Positions 36,807 through 52,325 of a DNA stretch of 64,000 nt are shown here, one piece after another. The translations under genes were made by a program, and so were the position numbers. Under the pieces are notes generated by a model that had not been told where the DNA came from, did no database searches, and saw only the letters and a list, made by a program, of their open reading frames with translations. How positions within the stretch are numbered: position 1 is the stretch's first letter; the number at the start of each line of letters is the position of its first letter. Source of the stretch: an uncultured Syntrophorhabdus sp. (GTDB taxonomy: Bacteria; Desulfobacterota; BSN033; UBA1163); NCBI GenBank assembly GCA_964477935.1, contig CAYZFX010000005.1, positions 31,384 to 95,383 of the forward strand. Direction: 5' to 3'.

Positions 36807-38755
36807 TCCCTTCTTAATTTCTGAGAGACAAGAGCGATCACCATCAACCCCAGCCCGATAAAATCGTACTGGGCCACAGGGTAGAAGAGGAGGAGACCTC
36901 CGATGATCAATAAAATCCGCTCATAGATCAAGGCCTTCTTGAAGAACCAGTTTTCCACTCCCCCGGCGAGGGCAGCCACCCCCAGGAAGGCGGTCACTGT
37001 GGTCCAGATCACATCGGTGAAGGCCCCCCGGAGAAGGATCCCCACCCCTTTGAGGTCGAGGGTGAACATGAAGGGAACGATGAAGGCTGGAAGGGTATAT
37101 TTCCAGGCGTACATCGTGGTCTTGTAAGGATTCCCTTTGGTTAAGGCGGCCGCGGCGAAACAGGAGAGGGCCGTGGGGGGGGAGACCTCTGAGAGGATGG
37201 CATAGTAGAAGACGAACATGTGGGCGGCAAAGTCTGGCACCCCCAGTTGAATCAGTGCCGGTGCGGCAATCACTGCAGCGATGATATAGGAGGCCGTGAC
37301 CGGGACGGCCAAGCCGATCACCCAGACGATGAGGGCGGTATAGATGGCTGTCAGGAGCAGACTGCCCCCTGCATATTCGATGATGATCGAGCTGAACTTG
37401 AGACCCAGTCCCGTCAGGGTGACCACGCCCACGATGATGCCTGCAGCCGCGCAGGTGGAGGCGACGCTCAAGACGCCGAGGGCTCCTCCACGCAGGGCCC
37501 TCACCAGTTTGGCGGGAGTCAGGGCAGTGTCTTTGCGAAGGAAGCTGACGACGAAGGCCACAACCGTGGCCCAGAAGACCGCCAGGATCGGGGTGAAGCC
37601 GAGAACCATGATCACCACAATGGCAATCAGAGAGACGAAGTGAAACCCGTAGAGATAGGTGAGCTGCCAGAGACTATAGGTCTTATCCACGGAGATCTCT
37701 TTGACCCCGAATTTCTTGGCGTCGATCTCCACCATCAGGAAGATCGACCAGTAGTAGAGGCAGGTCGGGATGCAGGCCATGATGATCACATCGAGGTAGG
37801 AGATCTTCAGGAACTCAGCGATGAGAAAGGCTGCGGCCCCGAGCACCGGCGGGGAGAGGATGGCGCCGATGCCTCCAGCAGAGAGCAGGCCTCCTGCTGC
37901 CTCCTTGCTGTATCCTGCCTTGGCCAGCATCGGATAGGCGACCGAGCCCAAAGTGACGGTGGTCGCCACCCCGCTCCCCGAAGGCCCTCCGAGAAGAAAG
38001 GAGGCCAGGGTGACGGTCCGTCCCGCGCCGGTCGGCTTCCCTCCCATGGCAGCAAAGGAGAAGTCGATGAAGAACTTTCCCGCCCCAGAGACCTCGAGGA
38101 AAGCGCCATAGATGGTAAAGAGGATGATGAAGGTCGAGGAGACATCGATCGGAACGCCGAAGATCCCTTCGAGGGTCATATACATATGGCCAACCAGCCG
38201 GCCGAGGTCATACCCCCGATGGGTCCAGGGTTTGGGAAGCTCCGGCCCGACGAAGGCATAGACGATGAAGGCGATCACGATCACAGGCATGATCCAGCCT
38301 GTGGTCCGCCGGGTGGCCTCGAGCACCAGAAGGATCAAGAGGGTTCCAAAAACGATATCCCAGAAGTTGGGCACAACTGAGCGGTAGATAAATTCGTCGA
38401 AATCGATAAACATGTAGGCGATGACGGCGACGCCCAGAAGGGCGAGGAGATAATCATACCAGAGGATCCGGTTCTTGAACCGCTTGAACGAGGGAAAGAC
38501 CAGAAAGGAGAGGAAGAGGACAAACATGACGTGAATGCCCCTGAGGACCTGGGTCATGATCACGCCGATAGCGGCATAGAGGTGAACGAGCGACATCACT
38601 ACCGCCACGACGGTGATAAAGAGATCGATCTTTCCCGAGAGCCTCCGGGAGGGTCCCTCTTCCTCCTCGATATACTTTTCGGCCTCCTTGAGGGCCTCTT
38701 CGGTAATGACGGCTTCTTCCATCTTTTTTCGATCATCAGTTTTCATATCGTTCAC
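36803..38755 (-). CDS. TRAP transporter fused DctQ/DctM-type permease (4TM+12TM)
   Basis: 650 aa, highly hydrophobic, matching the TIGR02123-like fused permease that pairs with TAXI receptors. Confidence 0.85.
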   Translation of the reverse strand: MNDMKTDDRKKMEEAVITEEALKEAEKYIEEEEGPSRRLSGKIDLFITVVAVVMSLVHLYAAIGVIMTQVLRGIHVMFVLFLSFLVFPSFKRFKNRILWYDYLLALLGVAVIAYMFIDFDEFIYRSVVPNFWDIVFGTLLILLVLEATRRTTGWIMPVIVIAFIVYAFVGPELPKPWTHRGYDLGRLVGHMYMTLEGIFGVPIDVSSTFIILFTIYGAFLEVSGAGKFFIDFSFAAMGGKPTGAGRTVTLASFLLGGPSGSGVATTVTLGSVAYPMLAKAGYSKEAAGGLLSAGGIGAILSPPVLGAAAFLIAEFLKISYLDVIIMACIPTCLYYWSIFLMVEIDAKKFGVKEISVDKTYSLWQLTYLYGFHFVSLIAIVVIMVLGFTPILAVFWATVVAFVVSFLRKDTALTPAKLVRALRGGALGVLSVASTCAAAGIIVGVVTLTGLGLKFSSIIIEYAGGSLLLTAIYTALIVWVIGLAVPVTASYIIAAVIAAPALIQLGVPDFAAHMFVFYYAILSEVSPPTALSCFAAAALTKGNPYKTTMYAWKYTLPAFIVPFMFTLDLKGVGILLRGAFTDVIWTTVTAFLGVAALAGGVENWFFKKALIYERILLIIGGLLLFYPVAQYDFIGLGLMVIALVSQKLRRE

Positions 38756-38834
38756 CTCTCCCGTTCAAAAACACTTCATTCATAATAAAAATGGCTTTTT
38801 ATTGTCAAGAAAAAAGGGACCAAGAGGGTAATTC

Positions 38835-39023
38835 CCTCAGTCAAGGGAAGAAAAAGGGTTGGGAGGTTCTTCCGGAAAAACCTTGATTCATTGAAAGATG
38901 GAGGCTCGCCTCAAAAGAACCCCATTCAAAAGGCAGGAAGACCCATTGGGGTCACTTCAATGTCCGCCCTTCAACAAGGTTTTGGAGGGGGAATCTTCCA
39001 ACCCTTTTGAACCCATGTGACCC
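38835..39023 (+). repeat. Conserved ~190-nt structured leader element, copy B, about 50 nt upstream of the DUF362/LarA-like gene, with a 16-codon uORF (38960-39010)
   Basis: Paralogous to 34394-34579. The uORF encodes MSALQQGFGGGIFQPF*, carrying one extra in-frame codon relative to copy A. Confidence 0.6.
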
Positions 39024-39071
39024 CGTAATTGAAAGATTACCCAAGAGGATCCGGTTGACACCTTTCGGCCC

Positions 39072-40379
39072 ATGGAGAATAATAGGTCCATGAACCTTCC
39101 TCGGATGTACCGTATCGCCCAAGCCTTCAACCGGACCTCCGTGGAGGATATCGAAGAAACGATCCGGGAGGAACTGGTCAAATTAAAATTAAGGGAAAAA
39201 CTCAGACCCGGCCATCGGGTGGCTATTACGGCGGGAAGCCGCGGGATCTCTCAGATCCCCCTTATTCTCAAAACCCTTGTCAATCATCTCCGTCATCTCG
39301 GCGGCCGCCCCTTCCTCTTTCCGGCCATGGGCTCTCACGGAGGGGCGACGGCCGAAGGCCAGGTGGCCCTTCTCCGGCATTATGGGATCACCGAAGAGAT
39401 AATCGGTGCCCCCATCTTCTCTTCCATGGAGGTCATCGAATTGGGGAAGACGGAATCGGGGATCCCGGTCTATATGGATAGGCATGCCTTTGAAGCCGAC
39501 CATATCGTCGTGGTCAACCGCATCAAACCCCATACCAAGTTCAAGGGGCCCGTCGAGAGTGGGTTGATGAAGATGATGGCCATCGGGATGGGAAACCAGA
39601 AGGGAGCGGAAGTAACCCACCGGGCTGCCATCGATTACGGTTTCCCTAAGATCATCGAAGAGGTTGCCACCGTGGTGATGCGCCGAACCTCCATCCTCTT
39701 CGGGCTGGGAATCATCGAAAATGGATATGATGAGACAGCCCGATTGGTCGCTCTCCTGCCCGAAGAGATCAGGAGCCGGGAGCCCGACCTCTTATCTCAA
39801 GCCAAAGCATGGATGCCAAAACTCCCGTTTCATCAGATCGATCTTCTGATTGTGGACGAGATGGGAAAGGACGTGAGCGGCGTCGGTATGGACCCCAACG
39901 TCACCGGTCGGAATCGGGATATCCTCGGAACCTTTCCCCATCCCACCATGGTGAAGCGACTCTTCGTCAGGGATCTGACTCCCGCCTCCCATGGCAATGC
40001 CATCGGCATCGGACTGGCGGATCTCACCACGAAAAGGCTGGTGGAAAAGATCGATCCTCGCGCCACCTACACGAACTGCATCACCGCCATCAGCCTCGAA
40101 AAGGCCTCCATCCCGATGACCTTTGAAACCGACCAGGAAGCCATCGCGATCGCCTTAGGTTCGATCGGTCTCATCCCGGCACACCGAGCCCGGATCGTGC
40201 GCATCAAGAACACTCTCCAGCTGGATGAAGTGGAGGTATCGGAGGTTTACAGGGATGAATTTCTCGAGAGGTCCGATCTGAAGATCATAGAGGGTCCTTA
40301 TCCGATGAGGTTCGATCCTCAGGGAAACCTTCTTCCCTTACAGATTCCGGAGAGGAGAAAAAAGGACCTCGTCGATTGA
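39072..40379 (+). CDS. LarA-like / DUF362-like domain protein (function unknown)
   Basis: 435 aa with the segment …HIVVVNRIKPHTKFKGPVESGLMKMMAIGMGNQKGA…, which resembles the KxH…G…K motif region of the DUF362 and lactate-racemase-like folds. The family assignment is tentative. Confidence 0.45.
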   Translation: MENNRSMNLPRMYRIAQAFNRTSVEDIEETIREELVKLKLREKLRPGHRVAITAGSRGISQIPLILKTLVNHLRHLGGRPFLFPAMGSHGGATAEGQVALLRHYGITEEIIGAPIFSSMEVIELGKTESGIPVYMDRHAFEADHIVVVNRIKPHTKFKGPVESGLMKMMAIGMGNQKGAEVTHRAAIDYGFPKIIEEVATVVMRRTSILFGLGIIENGYDETARLVALLPEEIRSREPDLLSQAKAWMPKLPFHQIDLLIVDEMGKDVSGVGMDPNVTGRNRDILGTFPHPTMVKRLFVRDLTPASHGNAIGIGLADLTTKRLVEKIDPRATYTNCITAISLEKASIPMTFETDQEAIAIALGSIGLIPAHRARIVRIKNTLQLDEVEVSEVYRDEFLERSDLKIIEGPYPMRFDPQGNLLPLQIPERRKKDLVD

Positions 40380-40844
40380 TTTCAAGAGATAAGAGCCCAA
40401 CGACATCGTGGTGATCCTCAACCGAATGCGATCGCCTATCTCTCCCAGATCGCCGAAATCGATCCGTCTCCCCTTGACGATGAAGGCCTGGCCCCCTCCG
40501 AACGTCCTTTTCAGGTCGATCACATCCAATCTCCTCTGGAGGGGATGGAATTCTTCCGTTGCCTCAAATCCATAATACTCCATCACGCCAGGGCTTTTGG
40601 TCTCCACCCCTTCAAGGAGGAAGGACCCTTCTCCGATCCGGAAGGCCTCGCTCACAGGCGCGCTATAGAGGGAATGGAGATAACGGAGGGTCAAGAGGTC
40701 GCCGGGTTGGACCCTGATGCTCAGCGTTTTTGATTGGTCCAGATTTTCCAGGTGAAGAACGGTAACTTCTTTTAAAATCAAAACCCCTCCCGCCAAGGAT
40801 AAAAACCCGATCAAGGTCAGGAGGGGCCAACGTTTGGACTTCAA
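40338..40844 (-). CDS. DUF1850 domain protein (TAXI-TRAP associated)
   Basis: 168 aa with an N-terminal TM segment, located immediately downstream of the TAXI receptor gene as is typical for DUF1850. Confidence 0.65.
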   Translation of the reverse strand: MKSKRWPLLTLIGFLSLAGGVLILKEVTVLHLENLDQSKTLSIRVQPGDLLTLRYLHSLYSAPVSEAFRIGEGSFLLEGVETKSPGVMEYYGFEATEEFHPLQRRLDVIDLKRTFGGGQAFIVKGRRIDFGDLGEIGDRIRLRITTMSLGSYLLKSIDEVLFSPLRNL

Positions 40845-41807
40845 TTACCTGATCTTCAGCCCTTTCTCCGTATAGAACCGAATGGCGCCGGGATGGAAGG
40901 GAATCGGAGAACCACCTGCACCCTGAGGTTCGAGGGCAAGCCAAGCCGCATCCTTGTGTACGGCCACCAGCTCCGATTTGCGGTCAAACATCGTCCTCAC
41001 GATGTCGTAGGCCACGTCGCCTTTCATATTCTCATGGCAGACGACGAGGTTCCAGACGACAGTGATGGGGACGTCGACGTCCTGGCCTGGATAAGATTTG
41101 GCCGGAATGGTTCCCTTGACGTAAAGAGGCCCGTACTTCTCTCTCATCTTGGGCAGGGCCTCATCGTGGCCGATCAGTTTGATCTTGAGACCGGGTGTTG
41201 CTGCGACATCTGTCACAGAGGCGGTCGGGACCCCCCCTACCCAGAAGTAGGCGTCGATCTTGCGGTCCTTTAATGCCCCCGCGGACTCCGAAGCGCCTAA
41301 TTTATCTCTCTTCAGATCCTTATCCGGATCGATCCCAAAGGCCTCGAGCACTCGCAGGGCCATCACCTCGGTTCCGCTCCCAGGCGCACCGGTGGATACC
41401 CTTTTCCCTTTCAGGTCGGTCACCTTTTCAATTCCCCTTCCCTCCACGGTGACGATATGCATGTTATTGGGATAGAAGGCGAAGAGGGTGCGGAGGGGAA
41501 CCTTCTCCTTGAAGACCCCCTTCCCTTGAAAGGCATCCCATGCGGTATCGGCCATCGTGAAAGCCAGATCGGCCTTTCCTGCCCCGATCAATCGACAGTT
41601 ATCCACCGAGGCCGTGGTCACCTCTGCGGTGGCCTCCGCATAGGGGATATATTTGGAGATGACGCTGGCCATACCCCCTCCCAAAGGATAATAGACTCCT
41701 CCGGTCCCTCCTGTAGCGATGGAGAGGCGAACCGCCTTCTGAGCCCATACGGTGGAGACCGCGAAGACGATCAGGAAAAGCATTCCGAATAAGACGAACC
41801 GTTTCAT
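40845..41807 (-). CDS. TRAP transporter solute receptor, TAXI family
   Basis: 320 aa with a signal peptide and the TAXI motif …RLSIATGGTGGVYYPLGGGMA…. Confidence 0.85.
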   Translation of the reverse strand: MKRFVLFGMLFLIVFAVSTVWAQKAVRLSIATGGTGGVYYPLGGGMASVISKYIPYAEATAEVTTASVDNCRLIGAGKADLAFTMADTAWDAFQGKGVFKEKVPLRTLFAFYPNNMHIVTVEGRGIEKVTDLKGKRVSTGAPGSGTEVMALRVLEAFGIDPDKDLKRDKLGASESAGALKDRKIDAYFWVGGVPTASVTDVAATPGLKIKLIGHDEALPKMREKYGPLYVKGTIPAKSYPGQDVDVPITVVWNLVVCHENMKGDVAYDIVRTMFDRKSELVAVHKDAAWLALEPQGAGGSPIPFHPGAIRFYTEKGLKIR

Positions 41808-41860
41808 ATGCCTCCTCCTTTTGGAGTTTTTCCTTCAATATATCAGGTCTGTCTGAAATG

Positions 41861-43033
41861 TCAAGGAGATTGGTTCGTTCTGGTCAGGACCCCTCGAGCA
41901 AAGCACTGGAAAAGGTCAGGTCCTAAGAAGTCACCAAGGATTTTTGCCCGGTAGCGACATCCGCCCCGGCAGTCTTCGAGCACGTTACAGCGGCACTTCA
42001 ATCGTTCGAGGGGAATGCGAACCATTCGCTCCCAGCAGACCCGAAGCCCTTCGTCGATTGTCCCCACAGGTTCCTCGCTAAAGAGACCGCACTTGGCCAC
42101 TCTCCCATCGGGGAATATGGCACAGAGATGAGCACCGCAGGTCTCCTGATGGACTGCGCTGTGGAGCCCACCCCCAAAGGCATATCTTAAAAGAGGTCCT
42201 CCCTCCTCCGGGGAGACCCAGAGGTCTCGATTCTCCTCCAATCTTCCCGCGAGGCAAGGGACATCCACATTCCATTCCTCGATCTGCTTCGATCGGAGAA
42301 AGGAGGCCAGTTCATCAAGCTCCCCTAAATTATCTCGATGGATCATCGTCGCGATCGAAACTCGAAGATGAGCCTCCTGGAGATAGTCAATGGCTCGAAT
42401 GACCCTCTCGAACGTTCCCTCCCCCCGGAGGGATTCGTGACCCTTCTTCATCCCATCGAGACTGAGTTGAACTTCATGGACCCGAAGCTTCGAGGCATTG
42501 TCGGGATGGATCAGGGTCCCGTTGGATAGCAAGACGGAACGAAAAGGGTAATCCTTTAACACCTCGTTGATCCTCCAGAAATCGGGATGGAGCAGGGGTT
42601 CCCCTCCAGAGAGGAGGAGCCTCAACCCCTGGATCTCCTCAAATTCCTCAAGGACTTTCACGATCCTCCCGAGAGAAAGGTCCTGACAGAGGCCCTCCCC
42701 GAGATAGCAGTGGCGACAGCCGAGGTTGCATCGATCGGTGATCAGGAGCTCGAGGTATCGTAGAGAAGGGATGGGAGAGGGGTTCAACCGGAACGCTCTC
42801 GAGAACGGAGTGTCTGAAAGGGAGACGAGATTTTCAGAAAGACAATATTGGAGAAACGCCTCCTCTTCATTCACGGCCAGGGGTTCCCCTCGCAGTGATT
42901 TCAGAAGGAACTGAAACGCCTCTTCTCCCAACTCGTACAGTTGGTCGTTTTCGATGTCATAGAGATAGGGCTGTTCAAGCCTCTTGAGCGAGCAGTGGGG
43001 AGAGAGGACCAAAAATTTATTTTCGAAGGACAT
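41861..43033 (-). CDS. Radical SAM / SPASM-domain peptide-modifying enzyme
   Basis: 390 aa with a CNLGCRHC (Cx3Cx2C) motif and a C-terminal SPASM Cys cluster (C…CGLF…C…CRC…CRGGCRYR). Confidence 0.8.
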   Translation of the reverse strand: MSFENKFLVLSPHCSLKRLEQPYLYDIENDQLYELGEEAFQFLLKSLRGEPLAVNEEEAFLQYCLSENLVSLSDTPFSRAFRLNPSPIPSLRYLELLITDRCNLGCRHCYLGEGLCQDLSLGRIVKVLEEFEEIQGLRLLLSGGEPLLHPDFWRINEVLKDYPFRSVLLSNGTLIHPDNASKLRVHEVQLSLDGMKKGHESLRGEGTFERVIRAIDYLQEAHLRVSIATMIHRDNLGELDELASFLRSKQIEEWNVDVPCLAGRLEENRDLWVSPEEGGPLLRYAFGGGLHSAVHQETCGAHLCAIFPDGRVAKCGLFSEEPVGTIDEGLRVCWERMVRIPLERLKCRCNVLEDCRGGCRYRAKILGDFLGPDLFQCFARGVLTRTNQSP

Positions 43034-43229
43034 CTTCGACCACTTCCGGGGTGAGGACCCCTTTCTCGAGAAGCGCTTTTAAAATCTTAAAGGCGCCACA
43101 CTCAAGATCTTTCTCCGATTCCTTGTAGAAATCACAATGGGAGCAGATGAGCCGGATGAGCGCTTCTTTCTCCATCTCCTTCGCCTCTCTTTTCAGGAAG
43201 GTCCCTTTTTCCTTCTGCTCCAAACTCAT
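43017..43229 (-). CDS. Small 70-aa Cys-containing protein, translationally coupled between the DUF3365 gene and the rSAM/SPASM gene; candidate substrate or partner
   Basis: MSLEQKEKGTFLKREAKEMEKEALIRLICSHCDFYKESEKDLECGAFKILKALLEKGVLTPEVVEDVLRK. Three Cys are flanked by Asp/Glu after a ~28-aa charged N-terminal segment. An ATGA overlap joins it to the upstream gene, and it overlaps the rSAM start by 17 nt. Confidence 0.4.
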   Translation of the reverse strand: MSLEQKEKGTFLKREAKEMEKEALIRLICSHCDFYKESEKDLECGAFKILKALLEKGVLTPEVVEDVLRK

Positions 43230-43987
43230 CTTTTCTGTTTGGAGAGATCGATTTTCACGCTGATGGCCCCCCGAAGATCCCCGACGAGGAACCCTGTCGC
43301 CCGATCCTCCGGATACTTCTCTTTTAAGATCGCCAGGACCTCGGATGGGATATTCTCCTTGGGACCATGGCAGGTGAGGCAGAGCGGAGCCAGCGTGAGG
43401 GGCTTGAGATATCGAAAGTATTTGACCCCGCCCTCTTCCACGACTTCGAAGATCTCTTCGGGCAACCTCTTCTCACGATTCAGTCGGTCCAGTTCCTGAA
43501 GCCTCCGGGTTTCATAAGCGTCGGGAATGTTTTTGGGATTCCGATATCGCAAGCTGACCCGGCGGACCGTATGACCGGTCTGGGTTGAAAACCGGTTCGT
43601 CATCTCCTGCGCCCATTCGGAACAGACCCGAACCGCACCCGTAAAACCACCCTTTTGGATCTCCTGCATCAGGAGTCCCCGAACCGTATCCATCAACTCA
43701 TTTGAGATCCTTCTGGCCTCGGGGAGTTCTTTCTCGGAGGGAGTTTTCGGGTTGGATGGATTTACGGCTTGGGCATCCCGAACCGCCTCCCGGGCCACCG
43801 AGATGGGTTCTTTCGGACCGTGATCCTCATGCCGGACATAATAAATTCGTTCTCCAACAATCTGAACCAGGGGTTGATAGCCTGGGGTGGGGGTTCGCAT
43901 CCTGATGGATTCATTCTCCTGGATGGGAAAAGGTAACCAGGGAAAAAGAAGCGAAAGGACCATCGTCGCTCGAAACCAACCTTTCAT
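43226..43987 (-). CDS. DUF3365 (Tll0287-like) secreted c-type heme protein
   Basis: 253 aa with an N-terminal signal peptide and a CLTCHG (CxxCH) heme-binding motif near the C-terminus. Confidence 0.6.
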   Translation of the reverse strand: MKGWFRATMVLSLLFPWLPFPIQENESIRMRTPTPGYQPLVQIVGERIYYVRHEDHGPKEPISVAREAVRDAQAVNPSNPKTPSEKELPEARRISNELMDTVRGLLMQEIQKGGFTGAVRVCSEWAQEMTNRFSTQTGHTVRRVSLRYRNPKNIPDAYETRRLQELDRLNREKRLPEEIFEVVEEGGVKYFRYLKPLTLAPLCLTCHGPKENIPSEVLAILKEKYPEDRATGFLVGDLRGAISVKIDLSKQKR

Positions 43988-44045
43988 TAAGGATCCCCCT
44001 TCTTTTATAGGTATAGGCCAGGGTATCTCCCCTGGGTGGCCCGGT

Positions 44046-44789
44046 TCAAGAAAAGAGGTTGTCGAAGACCGTCATCACCACAAACCCCGAAAGCACACCA
44101 AAGGTTGCTTCCAGAGGATGGCCGCTCCGGTGAGTCTCTGGGATGATCTCGTTGCTGATGACGAAAAGCATGGCCCCCCCTGCAAAGGCAAGCCCCCAAG
44201 GGAGAAGGGACTGGGCCAGGGTAACGACGGTGACACCGATGAGGCCTCCGATGGGTTCGACCAATCCAGTCAGGGTGGCATATCCGAGGGCTCGAAGAGG
44301 GGTGTATTTCTCCCGGACAAGGGCAAACGCCACAGCCATCCCTTCCGGGATGTTCTGAAAGCCGATGCCCATAGCCAGACTTAACCCTTCCCCAAAATCT
44401 CCCCTTCCGAAACCCACGCCTACCGAAATTCCTTCCGGAAAATTGTGAATCGTAATGGCTAATACAAAGAGCCAGACCCTCGAGAGGCTGAGGGAAGGAT
44501 TTACGGGAGCAGAAAAGGTGTGAAGATGTGGGATGAGGCGATTGGCAAGGCCTAAAAAGGCCCCACCCAGGATGATTCCAAGAGAGGCAACCCCCACCCC
44601 TCCCAATTGAATGGAAGGAAGGACCAGACTGAAGGAGGTGGCCCCTAACATGATCCCGGCTGAAAAACCGAGAAGGGTATCGAGCCATTTTGGGGAGGCC
44701 TTCCTCGTCAACAGGACCGCAATGCCACCCAAACCCGTTGCCAATCCCGCACCGAGGCTGGCAAGGCCCCCCATCCCGATCGTCTCCAT
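44046..44789 (-). CDS. zupT: ZIP-family metal transporter (ZupT-like)
   Basis: 247 aa with 8 TM segments and the HNFPEG ZIP signature. Confidence 0.85.
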   Translation of the reverse strand: METIGMGGLASLGAGLATGLGGIAVLLTRKASPKWLDTLLGFSAGIMLGATSFSLVLPSIQLGGVGVASLGIILGGAFLGLANRLIPHLHTFSAPVNPSLSLSRVWLFVLAITIHNFPEGISVGVGFGRGDFGEGLSLAMGIGFQNIPEGMAVAFALVREKYTPLRALGYATLTGLVEPIGGLIGVTVVTLAQSLLPWGLAFAGGAMLFVISNEIIPETHRSGHPLEATFGVLSGFVVMTVFDNLFS

Positions 44790-44991: not shown

Positions 44992-46713
44992 ATGGGAGGA
45001 GAATCGCATCGGAGGATGAACGAAGAGGTCACAGTCGTTCTCTGCGGGGAGGCGGGACAGGGCGTTCAGACGGTCGAGCACCTTCTCACGCAGACGTTGA
45101 AGCTTTCAGGTTATCATGTCTTCTCTTCGCAGGAATATATGTCCCGCATACGTGGAGGAGCCAATTCCACCTGGATCCGCGTCTCTTCCCGCAGGGTGGC
45201 GGCGCCTGTCGAGCGGATCGATCTCTTGATCCCTTTCAGCCCCGGAGCGGTCGATCATCTTCGGAAAAAGATCTCCCCTCAGACCATCCTCCTCGGAGAG
45301 AAAACCCTATATGAAAAGGAATGCCGGACCTGCCGGGCCACCGAGGTACCTTTTTCGGACATCGCTCAAGAGCTGGGAGGCCGTATCTATATCAACACGC
45401 TCGCCGTGGGCGTCCTGGCAGGGCTGTTCCAAGTAGAAAAGGCCTTGCTCCGTCAGTCCCTCCAGCACCACTTTACAGGAAAAACCGGAGAGACCATCCA
45501 GAAGAATCTTCAGGCGATGGCAAAGGGGTATGAAGTCGGTGAAAGGCTCATCCTGTCCGGTCAAGTCCAAATTCATCTGACGAAAGACGAAGGGGTTAAA
45601 AATGAACTCCTGATGGATGGGGTGGAAGCGCTGGCCATGGGGGTGATCGCAGGAGGATGCAACTTCCTCGCCTTCTATCCCATGTCTCCTTCGACCGCCC
45701 TCGCCGTGCATCTCGCGGAACGCTCAAAAGAGTTCGGCCTCATCGTCGAACAGGCCGAGGATGAAATCAGCGCCATGAACATGGGGATCGGAGCATGGTA
45801 TGCAGGCGCCAGAGGTCTTGCCTCCACATCAGGGGGAGGGTTTGCTCTCATGGTGGAAGGCCTCAGCCTTGCGGGCATGATCGAGTCGCCCATGGTCATT
45901 CATATCGGACAACGTCCTGGCCCCGCTACGGGTCTTCCCACCCGGACCGAACAGGGAGAACTCCTCTTCGCCCTCTTTGCAGGTCACGGGGAGTTTCCGA
46001 GGGCCATCCTGACACCCGGAACGATCGAAGACTGTTTCTATCTTGGCCAGAAGGCCTTTGACCTGGCCGATCGGTACCAAATACCGGTCTTTATCCTGAC
46101 CGACCAATACCTCCTCGAATCCCATTACAACATCCCCTCGCTCGATGTAGAACGAAATCTTCTGACCAAACACTTTGTCGAAACGAGGCAGGGATATAAG
46201 CGTTATCTACTCACCGAGAATGGGCTCTCTCCCCGTGGCCTCCCCGGTTATGGACAGGGTCTTGTGGTTCTGGACAGCGATGAACACGACGAGGAGGGCC
46301 ATATCACAGAGGACCTCGAATTGAGGACGAAGATGGTCAAAAAACGGCTCAAAAAATTGGACCTCCTGGAGGAGGACATCCAATCTCCGGAGCTTTTCGG
46401 CCCTGAGGATTACAAGACCTTGGTCATTGGATGGGGATCCACCTATCATGCCATCAAAGAGGCCACTGAAAGGCTGGCCCGGGATGACGTTTCGTTCCTC
46501 CATTTTAAACAGGTTTATCCCCTCCATCCGAACAGTGCGAATTTTCTTCAAAGGGCTAAAAGAAGGGTCATCGTCGAGAACAATGCCACGGCTCAGTTCG
46601 GTCAACTCCTCCGCATGCAAACCGGGATAAAGATGGACCATCAGATCCTTCAATTTAACGGTCTCCCGTTTGCGGTGGATGATCTCGAAAAGCGATTGAA
46701 ATCCCTTTGTTAG
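44992..46713 (+). CDS. korA: 2-oxoacid:ferredoxin oxidoreductase alpha subunit
   Basis: 573 aa with N-terminal …VLCGEAGQGVQT… and OFOR pyrimidine-binding domains. An alternative start lies at 45016 (MNEEV). A TTGCTC-N17-TATAAT promoter-like element lies upstream at about 44926-44954. Confidence 0.8.
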   Translation: MGGESHRRMNEEVTVVLCGEAGQGVQTVEHLLTQTLKLSGYHVFSSQEYMSRIRGGANSTWIRVSSRRVAAPVERIDLLIPFSPGAVDHLRKKISPQTILLGEKTLYEKECRTCRATEVPFSDIAQELGGRIYINTLAVGVLAGLFQVEKALLRQSLQHHFTGKTGETIQKNLQAMAKGYEVGERLILSGQVQIHLTKDEGVKNELLMDGVEALAMGVIAGGCNFLAFYPMSPSTALAVHLAERSKEFGLIVEQAEDEISAMNMGIGAWYAGARGLASTSGGGFALMVEGLSLAGMIESPMVIHIGQRPGPATGLPTRTEQGELLFALFAGHGEFPRAILTPGTIEDCFYLGQKAFDLADRYQIPVFILTDQYLLESHYNIPSLDVERNLLTKHFVETRQGYKRYLLTENGLSPRGLPGYGQGLVVLDSDEHDEEGHITEDLELRTKMVKKRLKKLDLLEEDIQSPELFGPEDYKTLVIGWGSTYHAIKEATERLARDDVSFLHFKQVYPLHPNSANFLQRAKRRVIVENNATAQFGQLLRMQTGIKMDHQILQFNGLPFAVDDLEKRLKSLC

Positions 46714-46857
46714 ACTCATTAAAGAGGTCACCCCCTGAAAAGAGGGGCGTCCAAGAACCTTTTCACGAAAGGAAACCGCTCGATTTTAGGTTCCTCTGGG
46801 TTGACAGAACCAGGTCCCGAGGGACTTTTTAGGTTTTGGGTCAGGAGAAAGGATGTT

Positions 46858-47721
46858 ATGGATATGAACCGATTTGATATAGAAGGTCTCGATATCGCCT
46901 GGTGCCCGGGGTGCGGCAATTATGCCATCCTCAGAGCCCTAAAAGAGGCGCTCTCAGAACTTCAGATCGAACCCGAGAGGCTGGTGGTCGTTTCCGGGAT
47001 CGGCCAGGCGGCCAAGGCGCCCCATTACTATCGCTGTAACCTCTTCAATGGACTTCATGGACGCTCCTTACCGGTGGCAACGGCTATCAAAGCGGTCAAT
47101 CCCGAACTGGTTGTCATCGACGAGAGCGGAGACGGGTGTATGTATGGTGAGGGAGGGAATCATTTCATCCACGCCATTCGCAGAAATCCTGACATCACCA
47201 ACCTCGTCCACAATAACATGGTCTACGGGTTGACCAAAGGACAGGCCTCCCCCACGAGCCTTCAAGGATTTAAAACCCTTGTCCAGAGGGAGGGGGTGTT
47301 TCATGAAGCCTTTAACCCCCTTGCGATTGCAATCACATTGGGAGCTTCATTGGTGGCAAGAGCCTTTGCAGGCGATATCGCCCAAACGAAGGAGATCATC
47401 AAAAAGGCGATTGCTCATAAAGGGTATGCTCTCGTGGATATCCTCCAGCCCTGCGTCACCTATAACAAACTGAATACCTATTCTTGGTTCAAATCAAAGA
47501 TCTATTATCTTGACGATTCTCACAATCCTCATGACCGAATCGAGGCTCTCAAAAAGGCATGGGAAACGGAAAAACTCCCCCTTGGCATCTTTTACCTCAA
47601 TCCAAAGCCTACCTTCGAAGAGAGATTGGCCGTCTATCAGGAGAGTAAAGCCCCGTTGTATAAGAGAGGTCCTGACTTGAGCCAACTCTCCCAATGGATT
47701 GATTCAAAAAGAGGTATTTAA
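46858..47721 (+). CDS. korB: 2-oxoacid:ferredoxin oxidoreductase beta subunit (TPP-binding)
   Basis: Starts [25 protein letters not shown]… after a GGAGAAAGGA Shine-Dalgarno, and carries the TPP motif [12 protein letters not shown]. The ORF extends to 46801. Confidence 0.85.
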
Positions 47722-47748: not shown

Positions 47749-48444
47749 ATGGCTGAGCCTGTGATTCGAATCATCGATTTATGGAAGAATTATGGTGAGG
47801 ATGGGTCAGGGTCCCCTGCCCTTTGTGGTACAAATCTTGATATTCACAAAGGGGAAATCATTGCTCTCTTCGGAAAAAGCGGCTCTGGAAAAAGTACCCT
47901 GTTCAATCTGATTGCAGGACTTGACCGTCCCACTAAAGGCCGAATCGAAGTAGAGGGTCGTGATTTAGAAGACCTTGGAGAAAAAGGAAGGACCTTATTG
48001 AGAAGAAGGAAGCTCGGCTTCATCTTTCAATTCTTTAATCTCTTGCCCACCCTCACTGCCTTCGAAAATGTCTTTCTCTCCCTCGAATTGGCAGATCGAT
48101 CTAAACCCGAATTGGCTCTCAAAGCATTGAGAGACGTAGGCTTAGAAGGAAAAGAGCAAAGGTTTCCCAATGAGCTTTCTGGAGGAGAGCAACAGCGTGT
48201 GGCCATTGCCCGAGCGATTGTTAAAAATCCTTCCATCATTCTGGCCGATGAACCAACCGGGAATCTCGATACAAGCACAGGGAAACAGATCCTTCAATTA
48301 TTGACCAGAAGCTGTCGTGAATCGGGAACCACTCTGATGATGGCAACCCATTCCCCCCTGACCTGTCAATACGCCACCCGTATTCTGAGGATGGTGGATG
48401 GCGTGGTCACCGAAGAAACCTCCTGTGAGGAAATCGCCCATTGA
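47749..48444 (+). CDS. ABC transporter ATP-binding protein (AttE/YbbA/LolD-like)
   Basis: 231 aa with Walker [10 protein letters not shown], the signature [12 protein letters not shown], and Walker [12 protein letters not shown]. Confidence 0.85.
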
Positions 48445-48878
48445 AGATCGTCACTAAATCCTTTCTTCGGTATCTTCCACGCCGACTCAATCTCAGCCTG
48501 CTTCAACTGATGGGAGTGGCCTGCGGGGTCGCTGCAGTGGTGGGCATGACCCTTTCCGCCCAGACCGCTCTCAAAAGTTTCGGTCAGGCGATCGAATTTT
48601 TAAGAGGCAAAGCAACCCATTCCATTCAGAGACCGGTGGGTCCCATGGACGAAAGCCTCTTGATCCGACTCAGTCACGACCCTGCGGTGGAATGGTTTTC
48701 ACCGGTGATAGACCGGCAACTCAGCCTTGTTAGGGGGGGGCAGGTCCGCCTTCTGGGGATCGATCCGTTATTAGACAGGGCACTTCGACCGGAGATTGCA
48801 AAAGTCGAATGGCTGGACACAAAAGCTAATGTGACGGAGAATCTTCTCCATTTTTTACCGATGAGAGGTCGGTCTTGA
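48441..48878 (+). CDS. N-terminal fragment (TM1 plus start of the periplasmic domain) of a YbbP/AttFG-like double-FtsX ABC permease, interrupted by a -1 frameshift
   Basis: 145 aa, …LSLLQLMGVACGVAAVVGMTLSA…. Its stop TGA (48876-48878) overlaps the TTG (48875) that opens the continuing frame. Confidence 0.6.
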   Translation: MKIVTKSFLRYLPRRLNLSLLQLMGVACGVAAVVGMTLSAQTALKSFGQAIEFLRGKATHSIQRPVGPMDESLLIRLSHDPAVEWFSPVIDRQLSLVRGGQVRLLGIDPLLDRALRPEIAKVEWLDTKANVTENLLHFLPMRGRS

Positions 48879-50929
48879 TCGATCATGGTCTGAAAGAGGA
48901 AATCGGGATTACCTCTGAAAAGATGCTCGAGACCTCAAAAGGGTCTCTTCTGGTCAAAGGGAGTTTTCCCAATCCCTCGGCCGAACCCCTGGTGATCATG
49001 GACATCGGACATGCTCAAAAACTTTTTGGATTACAAGGGCTCGTAGACCGGGTGGATCTGATTTTGTCCGATGAATCCGGCTTCCGTTCTCGCTGGGGAA
49101 AAGGATTTTTCATCCTGTCGTCTCGCCAGAGAAGCGAGACCTTCTCCGGGATGCTCCGGGCGTTTCGCCTCAATCTCGAAGCCCTCTCTCTCTTAGCTCT
49201 CTTTGTGGGTGTCTTTCTCATCTACAACACTGCCATGTTCACGGTCATCAGCCGGAGGAGAGATGCTGGAATCTTGAGAAGTCTTGGGGCGAAACGTCTC
49301 GAAATCGTTCTTGCCTTTCTTTCGGAACTTCTCATCCTCGGGGGGATAGGTGGTGCTCTGGGAGGTTTGATCGGGTATTTTTTAACAAAGTTCCTCACAG
49401 GCCTGATCGGCAGCACCATCAGTAACCTCTACTTCTTTCTGAGGCCGGAACCTGTGGCCTGGTCCATCTGGATTCCGATCATCGGGATTCTTCTTGGATG
49501 CGGGGCAAGTCTGCTGGGAGGAATCATCCCTCTGGTCGAACTCATACGGGTCAATCCCGTGCAGGCTCTCAGTGGCCGAACTCCCAGCCGAAGGAGCACT
49601 CCTCGGGCGAAAAAAGTGGCTCTGATTGGTTCTGTTGTCCTTTTATTGAGCCTCATCCTCTTTCTTTTGCCGGGAAGCCATGTCTATGTTGGTTTTGCGG
49701 GTGTTTTCGGATTTGTCCTGTCTGCAAGCCTTTTCACCGGAATCATACTCATCGCTCTCCACCCCTTTCTTAAAAAAGCCCTCAAATGGCTTGGAGGACT
49801 TCCCGGAAAAGTGGCGGCAGGAACGATCCGGCAGAACCTCGGAAGAACAGGGGTGGCCATTGCGGCTTTTATGATTTCTCTTTCCATGTCCATTGGCCTC
49901 GGGACCATGATTGGAAGCTTCCGGCAATCTCTGATCTGGTGGATGGACACCCAAATCCGGGGAGACCTCTACATCGGTAAAATTCTTGAAGCAGAAGTTC
50001 CAGAAGACTTCTTTGAAGAACTTCGAGAGATTGAGGGATTGGGCGGGGTCCATCCCTATCGAAATGTCCAGACCCTCTATCGAGACACTTCCATCAATGT
50101 CAGCGCGGTCGATGCAGAGGTACTGAAAAAGTATGCCAGATTCGGCTGGTTAAAAGGGGGAAAGGAGAACTGGGAACCTGTCAAACAGGGCGGAGTGATC
50201 ATCTCCGAAAGCTTTTCGCGGCGTTTCGGGGTGAATTCGGGCGACACCATCACCCTGGAGGGGCAGCAGGGGCCTACGGAGTTTAAAGTCGGAGCCATCT
50301 TCTACGACTACACCACGGAGCACGGCTTGGTGATGATGGATCGCTCGACTTACCTCAAGACCTTCGGTGATAGAACGCTCAACAACATAGGAATCTTTAT
50401 TGATTCGGATCACCCCCGCAAACCCGAGCTCCTTCATGAGGTGAGAAAGAGGGCAGAAGCAAGAGGGCTTCCGGTGCTGACCGGCGCCCAGCTCCATCAA
50501 GAGGTTCTTGAGGTCTTTGACACGACCTTCGCAATTACCCGCTCGATGAGGATGATTGCGATCATCGTTGCCTTCTTTGGGATTGCCGGAGCTCTGCTGA
50601 CGCTCTTCATCGAGCGAAGCCGGGAATTCGGAATCTACCGTGCCCTTGGTTTTTCAACCCCACAGGTGGCTAAGATGACTCTCATGGAGGGTCTTGGAAT
50701 GGGAATGGTCAGTTTTGTTTTAAGCATCGGTGTGGGAACAGCGCTTGCAATTCTTCTCATTAAGGTGATCAATATCAGGAGTTTCAACTGGACCATCTTC
50801 TACTACCCATCGTTGGGACCTTATCTCTTAACCGGTGCCATCGCTATCCTGGCAAGCCTTGGAGCAGCCCTCTATCCCATCTGGAGGGTCTATCGGACCT
50901 ATCCTCAGATTCAAATTCGAGAGGAGTAG
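48875..50929 (+). CDS. Remainder of the YbbP/AttFG-like double-FtsX ABC permease (frameshifted continuation)
   Basis: 684 aa containing two FtsX 3-TM modules separated by an extracytoplasmic domain. Joined with 48441-48878 it gives an ~829-aa protein typical of COG3127 permeases. Confidence 0.65.
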   Translation: MIDHGLKEEIGITSEKMLETSKGSLLVKGSFPNPSAEPLVIMDIGHAQKLFGLQGLVDRVDLILSDESGFRSRWGKGFFILSSRQRSETFSGMLRAFRLNLEALSLLALFVGVFLIYNTAMFTVISRRRDAGILRSLGAKRLEIVLAFLSELLILGGIGGALGGLIGYFLTKFLTGLIGSTISNLYFFLRPEPVAWSIWIPIIGILLGCGASLLGGIIPLVELIRVNPVQALSGRTPSRRSTPRAKKVALIGSVVLLLSLILFLLPGSHVYVGFAGVFGFVLSASLFTGIILIALHPFLKKALKWLGGLPGKVAAGTIRQNLGRTGVAIAAFMISLSMSIGLGTMIGSFRQSLIWWMDTQIRGDLYIGKILEAEVPEDFFEELREIEGLGGVHPYRNVQTLYRDTSINVSAVDAEVLKKYARFGWLKGGKENWEPVKQGGVIISESFSRRFGVNSGDTITLEGQQGPTEFKVGAIFYDYTTEHGLVMMDRSTYLKTFGDRTLNNIGIFIDSDHPRKPELLHEVRKRAEARGLPVLTGAQLHQEVLEVFDTTFAITRSMRMIAIIVAFFGIAGALLTLFIERSREFGIYRALGFSTPQVAKMTLMEGLGMGMVSFVLSIGVGTALAILLIKVINIRSFNWTIFYYPSLGPYLLTGAIAILASLGAALYPIWRVYRTYPQIQIREE

Positions 50930-52072: not shown

Positions 52073-52293
52073 CCGTTGTGACGTAACTTTTTGGACAATC
52101 GAGTCTCCTGTGGGTTAAACTTAAATGCGATGAATAAGCCGAGTCCTCGATCCTCCTTTTCAAATCTCAGCAGTCCCATGCCGTGGCCGAAGAAGATATG
52201 GCGCTTTCTCAGAAATAATTGGATTAAAATCAGTCGCTTCCAATCCTGCTGTGGCCATCCTGGTGAGCCAGGTTGCTGACAGGCCAAAGAGGA

Positions 52294-52313
52294 AAAGCCT
52301 CGGAGAGGCTTTT
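52294..52313 (+). promoter_or_regulatory. Terminator/attenuator-like hairpin AAAGCCTC-GGA-GAGGCTTT plus TT, 13 nt upstream of the DUF523 gene start
   Basis: 8-bp perfect stem read from sequence. The U-run is only 4 nt. Confidence 0.3.
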
Positions 52314-52325
52314 GAGAGGGGAAGG

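Follow-up and report, generated by a model that had tools for sequence, protein, structure and literature searches.

Three overlapping minus-strand genes in the 64-kb stretch of DNA analysed here (the window, with positions counted from its first letter) raise the question of which of them form a conserved unit, and on what the radical SAM (rSAM)/SPASM enzyme encoded by the last one acts. A sequence-only reading had described an operon for a Tll0287-like heme protein, a 70-aa protein and a 390-aa rSAM enzyme, and the gene boundaries and the overlaps of 4 and 17 nt were reproduced here. The operon and its flanks are laid out as follows.

41837–41864, minus strand: promoter-like site TTGACA-16-TATATT with TG, at the rSAM stop (consensus match only)
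41861–43033, minus strand: rSAM/SPASM enzyme gene, 390 aa
43017–43033, minus strand: 17-nt overlap of the small-gene stop and the rSAM ATG, ATGTCCTTCGAAAATAA
43017–43229, minus strand: small Cys-triad protein gene, 70-aa ORF
43226–43229, minus strand: 4-nt ATGA overlap of the heme-protein gene and the small gene
43226–43987, minus strand: Tll0287-like heme protein gene, 253 aa, ATGA-coupled to and co-oriented with the small gene
44046–44789, minus strand: ZIP/ZupT-like metal transporter gene, 58 nt upstream of the heme-protein gene on the same strand

The transcription unit possibly begins with the ZIP/ZupT-like gene, whose order relative to the other genes is also found in the syntenic closest relative, L001. 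The candidate promoter at the rSAM stop may show where the unit ends and where transcription of a TAXI receptor gene starts separately.

The small ORF reads as previously described, including the loop CSHCDFYKESEKDLEC. The earlier reading had reckoned with an ORF that might be absent or unconserved in orthologous loci; instead, 129 homologs were found (53–97% identity, mostly 54 aa), and conservation ruled out a chance ORF. Among 39 orthologs, pairs differed on average by 0.19, 0.12 and 0.55 at codon positions 1, 2 and 3, indicating a coding gene under purifying selection. The conserved protein of ~52–54 aa corresponds to residues ~19–70 of the window ORF. Most homologs start ~10 residues before the first Cys, and conservation does not extend to the charged first 18 residues of the window ORF; thus, the '~28-aa charged leader' noted earlier belongs to this ORF and is no trait of the family. 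The start of that ORF is ambiguous, at either M1 (ATGA-coupled) or M19. Two segments stand out within it.

43020–43175, minus strand: conserved 52-aa core of the small protein, MEKEALIRLICSHCDFYKESEKDLECGAFKILKALLEKGVLTPEVVEDVLRK
43098–43145, minus strand: Cys loop of the small protein, CSHCDFYKESEKDLEC, the proposed modification site

C29, C32, C44, F34, K36, S38, K40, D41, L42, E43, G45 and A46 are invariant in the family, and the motif can be written C-x2-C-[DE]-F-Y-K-acidic run-L-E-C-G-A-[FY]. Trp is absent from both the 70-aa protein and the family consensus. Neither a signal peptide nor a cleavage motif, of the GG type or otherwise, is present in the small protein. AF2 models it as helical, with confidence in two C-terminal helices (residues 45–55 and 61–69) and low confidence in an unstructured Cys loop; the models of the small protein and the enzyme are both only moderately confident overall (pLDDT 63 and 64). 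Pfam, NCBIfam and PDB sequence searches with the small protein and its relatives gave no family match, and neither did Foldseek with the low-confidence AF2 model. The ORF is indeed unannotatable by motif, being without a Pfam or NCBIfam model, and it is as easily missed as expected: gene callers can overlook a gene this short (54 aa) that overlaps its neighbour by 17 nt, and one of them left it uncalled in L129. Every source that gives the protein a name calls it hypothetical.

The 390-aa protein matched Pfam Radical_SAM at 9.3e-23. In such enzymes, CxxxCxxC holds the SAM-binding [4Fe-4S] cluster and the seven-Cys SPASM motif holds two auxiliary clusters. Its parts are listed below.

41903–42139, minus strand: SPASM region with seven invariant Cys
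42707–42730, minus strand: rSAM [4Fe-4S] motif CNLGCRHC (C102-x3-C106-x2-C109, CxxxCxxC)
42794–43033, minus strand: N-terminal domain of ~80 residues, winged-helix/RRE-like, for putative peptide docking

The full set of SPASM Cys claimed earlier is present (C299-x10-G310-x4-C315, C347-x-C349-x5-C355-x3-C359, C377), with an x1 spacing at C347-x-C349 as compared with x2 in the SPASM motif Cx9-15Gx4C ... CxxCx5Cx3C ... C. Both the rSAM and SPASM Cys motifs are invariant across family members that are only 39–48% identical. Pfam SPASM did not match the window enzyme and reached 21.9 bits (cut-off 21.5) in the distant member L127, while homologs carry a SPASM label from JGI. The NCBIfam matches were all below 100 bits, through the rSAM core (best 98, 94, 87 and 86 bits versus cut-offs of 400–650), and no equivalog cut-off was reached (best 98 bits versus 515); the scores also fell below the curated cut-offs of the named rSAM–peptide systems ScmE, WgkB, GeoRSP, ACGX, CefB, mycofactocin and SCIFF. 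The best solved relatives were SkfB, SuiB, TigE, PqqE and CteB; in Foldseek, SkfB, SuiB and TigE aligned over nearly the full length. The SPASM part of the AF2 model had a pLDDT below 50.

A PqqD-like RRE is a winged helix of three strands and three helices. The N-domain of the enzyme was modelled as four strands, two helices and one strand (pLDDT 59–85), a predicted topology that fits an RRE, as do the Foldseek alignments to SkfB and SuiB. PqqD itself matched weakly, in one of 14 members at E 0.076 and in one of 14 at 0.22, and act_def_assoc_B matched weakly in five of 14; wHTH families matched the N-domain of distant members at E 0.04–8e-5. An hhalign comparison with one approximate PqqD-like sequence was not significant. 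By its best solved relatives, the enzyme is closer to RiPP maturases than to anSME. The latter lacks an RRE, and its substrates are large sulfatases with a C/S-x-P-x-R motif. The additional N-terminal domain and the rank of anSME below SkfB and SuiB ruled out this identity, no anSME family was among the best 25 NCBIfam families, and no sulfatase gene was seen in the compared loci; a grouping with anSME-like enzymes, a concern raised in the sequence-only reading, was not observed, the RiPP maturases being nearer.

Comparison across genomes showed that the conserved unit consists of two genes, the small gene followed by the rSAM gene, and that the heme protein is merely a local neighbour. An rSAM ortholog lies directly after the small gene in 38 of 38 non-redundant loci (40 of 40 retrieved), and reverse look-up from rSAM orthologs found the small gene upstream in four of four places. 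At least 33 of the 38 loci, Nitrospirota included, share this 17-nt overlap, again with an ATG. The pair spans Thermodesulfobacteriota, Nitrospirota, one high-GC bacterium and archaea; in the archaeal-context pair, the two genes overlap by 11 nt and lie among housekeeping genes on an archaeal-looking contig. The small gene is tandemly duplicated in L041, while neither a second copy nor a two-domain relative was found in the window. No peptidase or exporter gene is consistently present across the loci. NifU/NifS genes occur in 12 loci, and rubrerythrin-like proteins and 2-oxoacid:ferredoxin oxidoreductase (OFOR) are also among the neighbours.

A divergent ATP-grasp gene, matching only general ATP-grasp models, lies downstream of the rSAM gene in 25 of the 38 related loci, at a gap of ~150–250 nt. 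It is missing from the closest relative, the Nitrospirota loci and the window, where no homolog was found anywhere in the 64 kb; the Cys loop is still invariant in all of these. Literature searches on SPASM enzymes with ATP-grasp, OFOR, Desulfobacterota or archaea found no work specific to the small protein/rSAM system.

The co-occurrence test proposed for all three genes thus came out positive for the small gene and the rSAM gene only. The 253-aa protein is Tll0287-like (DUF3365), as had been proposed (PF11845 at 3.7e-28, 99.2 bits versus a cut-off of 24.1), with a single heme-c motif, CLTCH, at residues 203–207 (43367–43381, minus strand). Its hydrophobic N-terminus reads as a putative signal peptide, called by inspection rather than by a predictor, and the protein is predicted to be periplasmic, whereas the pair is cytoplasmic. 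Among 39 loci, the pair has a Tll0287-like protein beside it in just two, the window and L001; it is missing from 37 of the 38 others and from all sister-subfamily loci. It is a local, lineage-specific addition to the transcription unit, and the ZIP transporter is probably another. The Cache_heme (DUF3365/Tll0287) family has been described, with redox roles proposed for its stand-alone members (bioRxiv 10.64898/2026.02.01.703092).

A metagenome scan for relatives was run with a 6-sequence alignment. The wider superfamily of the small protein comprises 109 cluster representatives at 50% identity, including two-domain and multi-domain forms. Over 121 domain instances, the loop conservation was C 0.88, C 0.93, F 0.88, Y/F/W 0.87, an acidic run, L 0.72 and C 0.93. 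Each domain carries three or four Cys, and the length of the Cys loop differs between subfamilies. Among apparent fusions of the small protein to an rSAM enzyme, P0310, P0328 and P0342 were repeat-protein false positives on inspection, and P0332 was set aside as another, judged from a fragmentary match alone; P0352 and P0355 were unrelated cluster members, and P0280 was a chimeric ORF arising from tandem duplication.

In the sister two-domain subfamily, a homologous rSAM enzyme (45–47% identical, with the same N-domain) is present in 32 of 36 loci, and a Helarchaeota two-domain variant directly follows an rSAM gene. Two-domain relatives head operons for a two-subunit OFOR, which is directly downstream in at least 16 of 21 loci; there, the small gene is co-oriented with the OFOR at short gaps, and not with the rSAM gene. 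An OFOR of the same type lies ~1 kb from the operon in the window.

44992–46713, plus strand: 2-oxoacid:acceptor oxidoreductase alpha subunit gene, divergent (TIGR03710, 632 bits, above cut-off)
46801–47721, plus strand: 2-oxoacid:ferredoxin oxidoreductase beta subunit gene (NF008821, 471 bits, above cut-off)

This OFOR is a candidate functional associate of the pair. Within the single-domain subfamily, an OFOR neighbour was seen only in the window, L001 and L009. The ATP-grasp partner, the two-domain relatives and the OFOR link had all been overlooked in the earlier reading.

We favour, with somewhat better than even confidence, the explanation that the pair is a new family of rSAM/SPASM maturase and substrate, making an intracellular cross-linked mini-protein. 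The unit would be a ~52–54-aa cytoplasmic protein whose gene shares a fixed 17-nt overlap with that of its dedicated enzyme. The winged-helix (RRE-like) N-domain would dock the small protein, probably through the conserved ESLIxLI segment just before the first Cys, and 5'-deoxyadenosyl radical chemistry would then install one to three intramolecular cross-links in C-x2-C-[DE]-F-Y-K-E-S-E-K-D-L-E-C. Most likely, each would be a thioether linking one of the three invariant Cys to a carbon of an invariant aromatic or acidic residue. With neither cleavage nor export, the modified protein would remain intracellular as a rigidified helical mini-protein, and the neighbourhoods (OFOR, rubrerythrin-like proteins, NifU/NifS) point to low-potential redox metabolism.

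This explanation is favoured by the adjacency (38/38), the 17-nt overlap (at least 33/38), the reverse look-ups (4/4) and the sister subfamily (32/36), and also by the archaeal-context pair and the Helarchaeota variant. The superfamily motif keeps non-Cys residues (two aromatics, Lys and the acidic run), the small gene is under purifying selection, and the modelled N-domain topology fits an RRE. The L041 duplication and the multi-domain forms recall multi-core precursors, and no peptidase or exporter gene recurs consistently across the loci. Against it, the small protein is conserved (65–85%) to a degree usual in a folded partner or metal-binding protein rather than in a RiPP precursor, and with three or four Cys, each domain could simply be the site of a metal or an Fe-S cluster. 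The weak PqqD matches, the non-significant hhalign result and the moderate AF2 confidence also count against it, and the OFOR link, strong only in the two-domain subfamily, counts against its redox context.

Some of these observations could instead mean that the small protein is an obligate partner of the enzyme (a metal or Fe-S mini-protein, a chaperone or an electron donor) and not its substrate, with the enzyme acting elsewhere, for example on the OFOR or a metabolite. We regard this as possible but doubtful. Conservation, very high throughout the sequence, peaks at the Cys, which number three or four in each domain, Fe-S-related neighbours (NifU/NifS in 12 loci, OFOR, rubrerythrin-like proteins) are common, and the two-domain genes run with the OFOR rather than with the rSAM gene. 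There is also a published precedent: where SPASM enzyme genes are invariably and directly preceded by that of a small protein, this protein has been read as a PqqD-like auxiliary (PMC8939145). Yet the enzyme appears, from its model, to have its own N-terminal RRE-like domain, and no other candidate substrate gene is conserved beside the pair. The F, Y, K and acidic run of the loop are as conserved as the Cys, and the loop, predicted by AF2 to be unstructured, varies in length between subfamilies, which is a poor fit to a fixed metal-site geometry.

A conventional secreted antimicrobial RiPP (sactipeptide or ranthipeptide), matured by leader cleavage and export, would share the architecture of an rSAM/SPASM enzyme and a short Cys peptide, and MacB-type ABC genes are indeed found no more than a few kb away in 17 loci, as well as in the window. 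These vary in position and strand, however, there is no conserved peptidase or cleavage motif, and only ~10 residues precede the first Cys. Unlike that of bacteriocins, the sequence hardly varies between phyla, and the pair sits among housekeeping genes in the archaeal-looking contig; we consider such a product very unlikely. Less plausible still is a miniature QhpC/QhpD-like system, in which the cross-linked small protein would be a subunit acting with the periplasmic heme-c (Tll0287-like) protein. The ATGA coupling of the two genes, kept in the same order in L001, and the Cys- and Asp/Glu-rich loop had suggested it, but the distribution of the heme protein, confined to the window and L001, largely refutes this three-component arrangement. 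The heme protein is predicted to be periplasmic and the pair is cytoplasmic; the small protein lacks a signal peptide, and it also lacks Trp, making a Cys-Trp quinone (CTQ) impossible. No QhpD-class match was among the best 25 NCBIfam families, and no diheme cytochrome, QhpB/E/F/G-like gene or amine dehydrogenase subunit was seen in the loci.

If the maturase–substrate explanation is correct, the pair represents an unmodelled rSAM/SPASM substrate family, without a Pfam or NCBIfam entry, and the small protein is an intracellular, housekeeping-type modified protein like SCIFF or mycofactocin, not an antibiotic. With a 52-aa substrate and one enzyme, it would be a compact target for new radical cross-linking chemistry. 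The recurring OFOR adjacency suggests a link to low-potential electron transfer in strict anaerobes, Asgard archaea included. A bolder proposal, which we consider unlikely, is that the cross-linked small protein serves two-subunit OFORs as a redox module, either a ferredoxin substitute or a dedicated electron acceptor/donor, and that its conservation extends from Thermodesulfobacteriota and Nitrospirota as far as Asgard archaea; the two-domain OFOR operons and the divergent OFOR of the window would then be two layouts of one system.

Among known systems, QhpD is a SPASM enzyme that cross-links Cys to Asp/Glu carbons in the small protein QhpC, which stays a protein. The likeness is in concept only, the loop here being likewise rich in Cys, Asp and Glu; here there is no Trp or CTQ and no conserved heme subunit or Qhp accessory gene, and the pair is cytoplasmic as opposed to periplasmic. 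SkfB/SkfA, SuiB and TigE are structural relatives of the enzyme at only 14–22% identity, with unrelated substrates, and the auxiliary domain of SkfB is of the twitch type, with a [2Fe-2S] cluster, whereas the window enzyme has a full seven-Cys SPASM. The 253-aa protein is like the stand-alone Cache_heme heme-c proteins (Pfam threshold, CXXCH), as a neighbour gene only and not as part of the module. Graspetide-plus-SPASM hybrid clusters (Makarova et al. 2022, PMC8939145) similarly have an ATP-grasp gene near the rSAM gene, as in 25 of 38 loci here. The small-protein loop, with its invariant Lys/Ser and Asp/Glu, is like graspetide cores, but the ATP-grasp ligase of graspetide clusters is lacking in the window.

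SCIFF/ranthipeptide systems of the CteB type likewise place a short conserved Cys peptide beside a dedicated rSAM/SPASM enzyme with an N-terminal RRE (here RRE-like and putative). They share a housekeeping-like spread in anaerobes and the lack of obvious export machinery, and CteB is among the sequence and structure matches of the window enzyme. No sequence relationship was found, with no SCIFF family for the small protein or among the best 25 for the enzyme. SCIFF has six Cys (six-Cys-in-forty-five), whereas the small protein has three and a helical C-terminal half, and its family differs in its two-domain variants and its OFOR and ATP-grasp neighbourhoods. PqqE/PqqD/PqqA and MftC/MftB/MftA are intracellular rSAM/SPASM systems that turn a small conserved peptide into a redox-active product for specific oxidoreductases. 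PqqD and MftB are separate proteins, whereas the RRE-like domain is fused to the window enzyme, and no further tailoring enzymes are found here. PqqE is a sequence match of the enzyme, which scored 81 bits against a cut-off of 265 for the mycofactocin rSAM family and stayed below the Pqq and Mft family thresholds. It is this analogy with PqqE and mycofactocin that motivates the OFOR-linked reading.

Three minus-strand ORFs had been proposed, from sequence only, as a QhpC/QhpD-like operon of heme protein, small protein and SPASM maturase. Their coordinates, lengths and overlaps all match that description:

43226-43987, minus strand: Tll0287-like protein, 253 aa (Pfam, 3.7e-28)
43017-43229, minus strand: small Cys protein, 70 aa (ORF reading and homologs)
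41861-43033, minus strand: radical SAM enzyme (rSAM), 390 aa (Pfam and motifs)

In the window sequence, the first two genes overlap in ATGA, and the small gene and the rSAM gene share 17 nt (ATGTCCTTCGAAAATAA). The Tll0287-like protein contains CLTCH at residues 203-207 and has a hydrophobic N-terminus, which suggests that it is exported. A recent preprint describes the Tll0287/DUF3365 family as heme-c Cache domains and proposes redox roles for its stand-alone members (bioRxiv 10.64898/2026.02.01.703092).

The 70-aa ORF matched no Pfam or NCBIfam model. A search of 5.8 billion proteins identified 129 homologs (53-97% identity), nearly all of 54 aa. C29, C32, C44, F34, K36, S38, K40, D41, L42, E43, G45 and A46 were invariant in the alignment. 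Among 39 orthologs of the small gene, codon positions 1, 2 and 3 differ pairwise by 0.19, 0.12 and 0.55 on average, a pattern that marks purifying selection on the protein. The ORF, whose conservation had been the point in question, is a real gene, with a conserved part shorter than the sequence-only reading had it: residues 1-18 are unconserved even in comparison with the closest relative, L001, where the rSAM is 77% identical, and the supposed leader of ~28 aa is lost with them. By sequence reading, the window gene has two candidate starts: M1, with ATGA coupling and no Shine-Dalgarno sequence, and M19, which is preceded by GAGAGG...AAGGAG and agrees with the usual start of the family. The C-terminal half was confidently helical in the AF2 model.

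We scanned 185,579 species genomes and detected 36 loci, all of them in MAGs, from Thermodesulfobacteriota/Syntrophaceae and three Nitrospirota; exact look-ups added four loci, which brought the set to 40 (38 non-redundant). An rSAM ortholog (45-80% identity to the window enzyme) directly followed the small gene in all 40. The 17-nt overlap with its ATG was kept in at least 33 of the 38 loci, Nitrospirota among them, with two clear exceptions, L013 (inserted genes) and L025 (a 216-nt gap). In L013 (2785-6048), TspO-like and photolyase genes lie between the two, and a short duplicated rSAM 5' fragment remains. The reverse look-up, from rSAM orthologs on long contigs, placed the small gene upstream in four of four cases. 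In one of these, L129 (2853-3017), the gene finder of the source had overlooked the small gene (LALDKESLIVLICKHCEFYKESDKELECGAFKIL...), a non-ATG start being the probable cause. The same arrangement was called in L130. The high-GC contig L041 (3020-3753) carries a tandem duplication. A small gene of 78 aa comes first, next a 120-aa chimeric ORF in which the ~50 N-terminal rSAM residues run into a second small-protein copy, and last the rSAM gene.

The Tll0287-like gene, by comparison, occurred beyond the window in L001 alone among the 38 loci, and is most plausibly a gene added to the transcription unit in this lineage rather than the system component it was taken for. The gene order of L001 is that of the window throughout (OFOR, i.e., 2-oxoacid:ferredoxin oxidoreductase, ZIP, Tll0287, small gene, rSAM, TAXI). 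Other upstream genes vary: divergent NifU/NifS in 12 loci, signal peptidase with a 169-aa protein in five, and DUF523-DUF1722 in nine. The conserved unit is the pair of small gene and rSAM, not three genes. After the rSAM gene, 25 of the 38 single-domain loci contain a divergent gene for a ~305-aa ATP-grasp protein, usually 150-250 nt away (within L005-L037; examples L008:9538-10458 and L003:7468-8394), which matched PF02655 at 3.5e-9 and RimK/MptN-like models weakly. It is absent from the entire 64-kb window, L001, L009, L026, L032 and the Nitrospirota loci. Where the gene occurs, its product might contribute a ligation or a graspetide-like step.

The rSAM contains a CNLGCRHC motif and a seven-Cys SPASM pattern that is invariant even in relatives of just 39-48% identity; one distant family member met the Pfam SPASM threshold. 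It reached no curated NCBIfam family (best 86-98 bits against cut-offs of 400-650), the matches all passing through the rSAM core, and its solved relatives by sequence were only SkfB (7.8e-11), PqqE, CteB and TigE. The AF2 model (pLDDT 64, SPASM part poorly predicted) places four strands, two helices and one strand ahead of the rSAM barrel. Sequence evidence for a PqqD-type RiPP recognition element (RRE) in this N-terminal domain was marginal, and distant family members weakly matched winged-helix families; the domain is a putative RRE. Its two Cys are unconserved in the wider family, indicating that it is no cluster site. The enzyme resembles peptide maturases and is not anSME-like.

Searching 1.84 billion cluster representatives with a profile extended the family to 109 proteins (E<=1e-3, mostly 48-145 aa), none with a Pfam or NCBIfam family. 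Four long matches were rejected as repeat-protein false positives, three by inspection and cluster representative P0332 by its fragmentary match alone. The 121 domain instances follow C(0.88)-x2-C(0.93)-x-F(0.88)-[YFW](0.87)-K(0.63)-acidic run-L-E-C(0.93)-[GAS]-[AG]-[FY](0.91), after which comes an amphipathic helix. Two-domain members combine Cx3CxYYKP...LxCxG with CxxCxFx4CDF...PCGGF, and a metagenome scan with them returned 80 loci. A homolog of the window rSAM (45-47% identical, with the same N-terminal domain) lies immediately upstream and divergent in 32 of the 36 loci with enough upstream sequence, and alpha and beta genes for a two-subunit OFOR lie downstream on the strand of the two-domain gene in at least 16 of the 21 with enough downstream sequence. 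A rubrerythrin-like gene often intervenes, with gaps mostly of 3-65 nt; the two-domain gene heads such operons across L044-L123 (e.g., L073, L047 and L077). L047, L049, L057 and L068 each contain two rSAM-cluster ORFs. In L059, L061, L079 (394-1821) and L096 the two-domain Cys module shares a continuous ORF with a receiver domain, a PAS domain and a truncated HisKA_3 (positions 1-40 of the 68 in the profile), which is either a real sensor fusion or a rearrangement remnant. The pair also occurs, with an 11-nt overlap, in an archaeal-looking neighbourhood (L124-L126: RIO1 kinase, Ham1, ribosomal S15 with S13_N, DHH/Cdc45-like). In a Candidatus Helarchaeota MAG (MHA1377951.1; L127), a two-domain gene directly follows the rSAM gene, adjoined by thiolase, BKACE and aminotransferase genes.

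The window OFOR is of the same type as at two-domain loci and lies ~1 kb from the operon, with the ZIP gene alone intervening. The single-domain subfamily shows this link in the window, L001 and L009 only, making it a lead, not a rule. The surrounding features are:

44992-47721, divergent: OFOR subunit genes (TIGR03710, 632 bits; NF008821, 471 bits)
44005-44688, minus strand: 227-aa Pro/Arg/Ser/Gly-rich ORF, in another frame, almost wholly within the ZIP gene (44046-44789)
41837-41864, minus strand: sigma-70-type promoter-like consensus match, TTGACA-16-TATATT with TG extension, 11/12
36803-41807: TAXI-TRAP transporter set (receptor 40845-41807; DUF1850 40338-40844; fused DctM-type permease 36803-38755)
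39072-40379, opposite strand: LarA-N-like gene between the TAXI-TRAP genes
47749-50929: MacB-type ABC ATPase and FtsX permease
52251-53276: DUF523-DUF1722 (2-thiouracil desulfurase-like) gene

The 227-aa ORF appears to be spurious, a shadow ORF within GC-rich coding sequence. The promoter-like match lies at the rSAM stop codon, which it overlaps, and shortly before the TAXI receptor gene, suggesting that the latter is transcribed separately; the TAXI-TRAP block is syntenic with L001. Many related loci also have the MacB/FtsX and DUF523-DUF1722 genes near the pair, with no constant distance or orientation; this probably reflects lineage synteny, not function.

The most economical reading is that small protein and rSAM would form a dedicated substrate-maturase pair. 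Small gene and rSAM stay together whether they overlap in tandem, stand in tandem with the rSAM first or diverge, and they do so in different phyla and domains of life; in structure the enzyme belongs among RiPP maturases, and a putative docking domain is part of it; and no other candidate substrate is conserved near the pair. SPASM enzymes acting on Cys peptides are expected by default to form thioethers, as in sactipeptide, ranthipeptide and QhpD chemistry, and by this analogy the rSAM would form them from the three Cys of the small protein. The main rival takes the small protein for a metal- or cluster-binding partner, not a substrate. It is kept alive by Fe-S-rich neighbourhoods and by precedent, small genes upstream of SPASM enzymes having been interpreted as partners, PqqD-like auxiliaries (PMC8939145). 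However, the non-Cys loop residues are as conserved as the Cys and loop length differs between subfamilies, which is easier to reconcile with recognition and cross-linking by the enzyme than with a metal site of fixed geometry. For a maturase substrate, the lack of any peptidase, exporter or cleavage motif with the pair, together with the very high conservation and the helical C-terminal half, suggests an intact product that remains cytoplasmic.

The small-protein family has no Pfam or NCBIfam model, and every naming source calls it hypothetical. No description of it was found in the searchable literature, although one may exist. The breadth of the family, its fixed overlap, its two-domain forms and its association with OFOR recommend it as a lead. 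The analogy with QhpC fails: the heme protein is no conserved partner, the leader is unconserved, the small protein contains no Trp, so that CTQ is impossible, and the accessory genes of the Qhp type are absent here. The general idea, that a SPASM enzyme may act on the small and readily overlooked Cys/acidic protein encoded next to it, holds up, and a radical SAM/SPASM enzyme with a cognate small Cys peptide is a system of a known kind.
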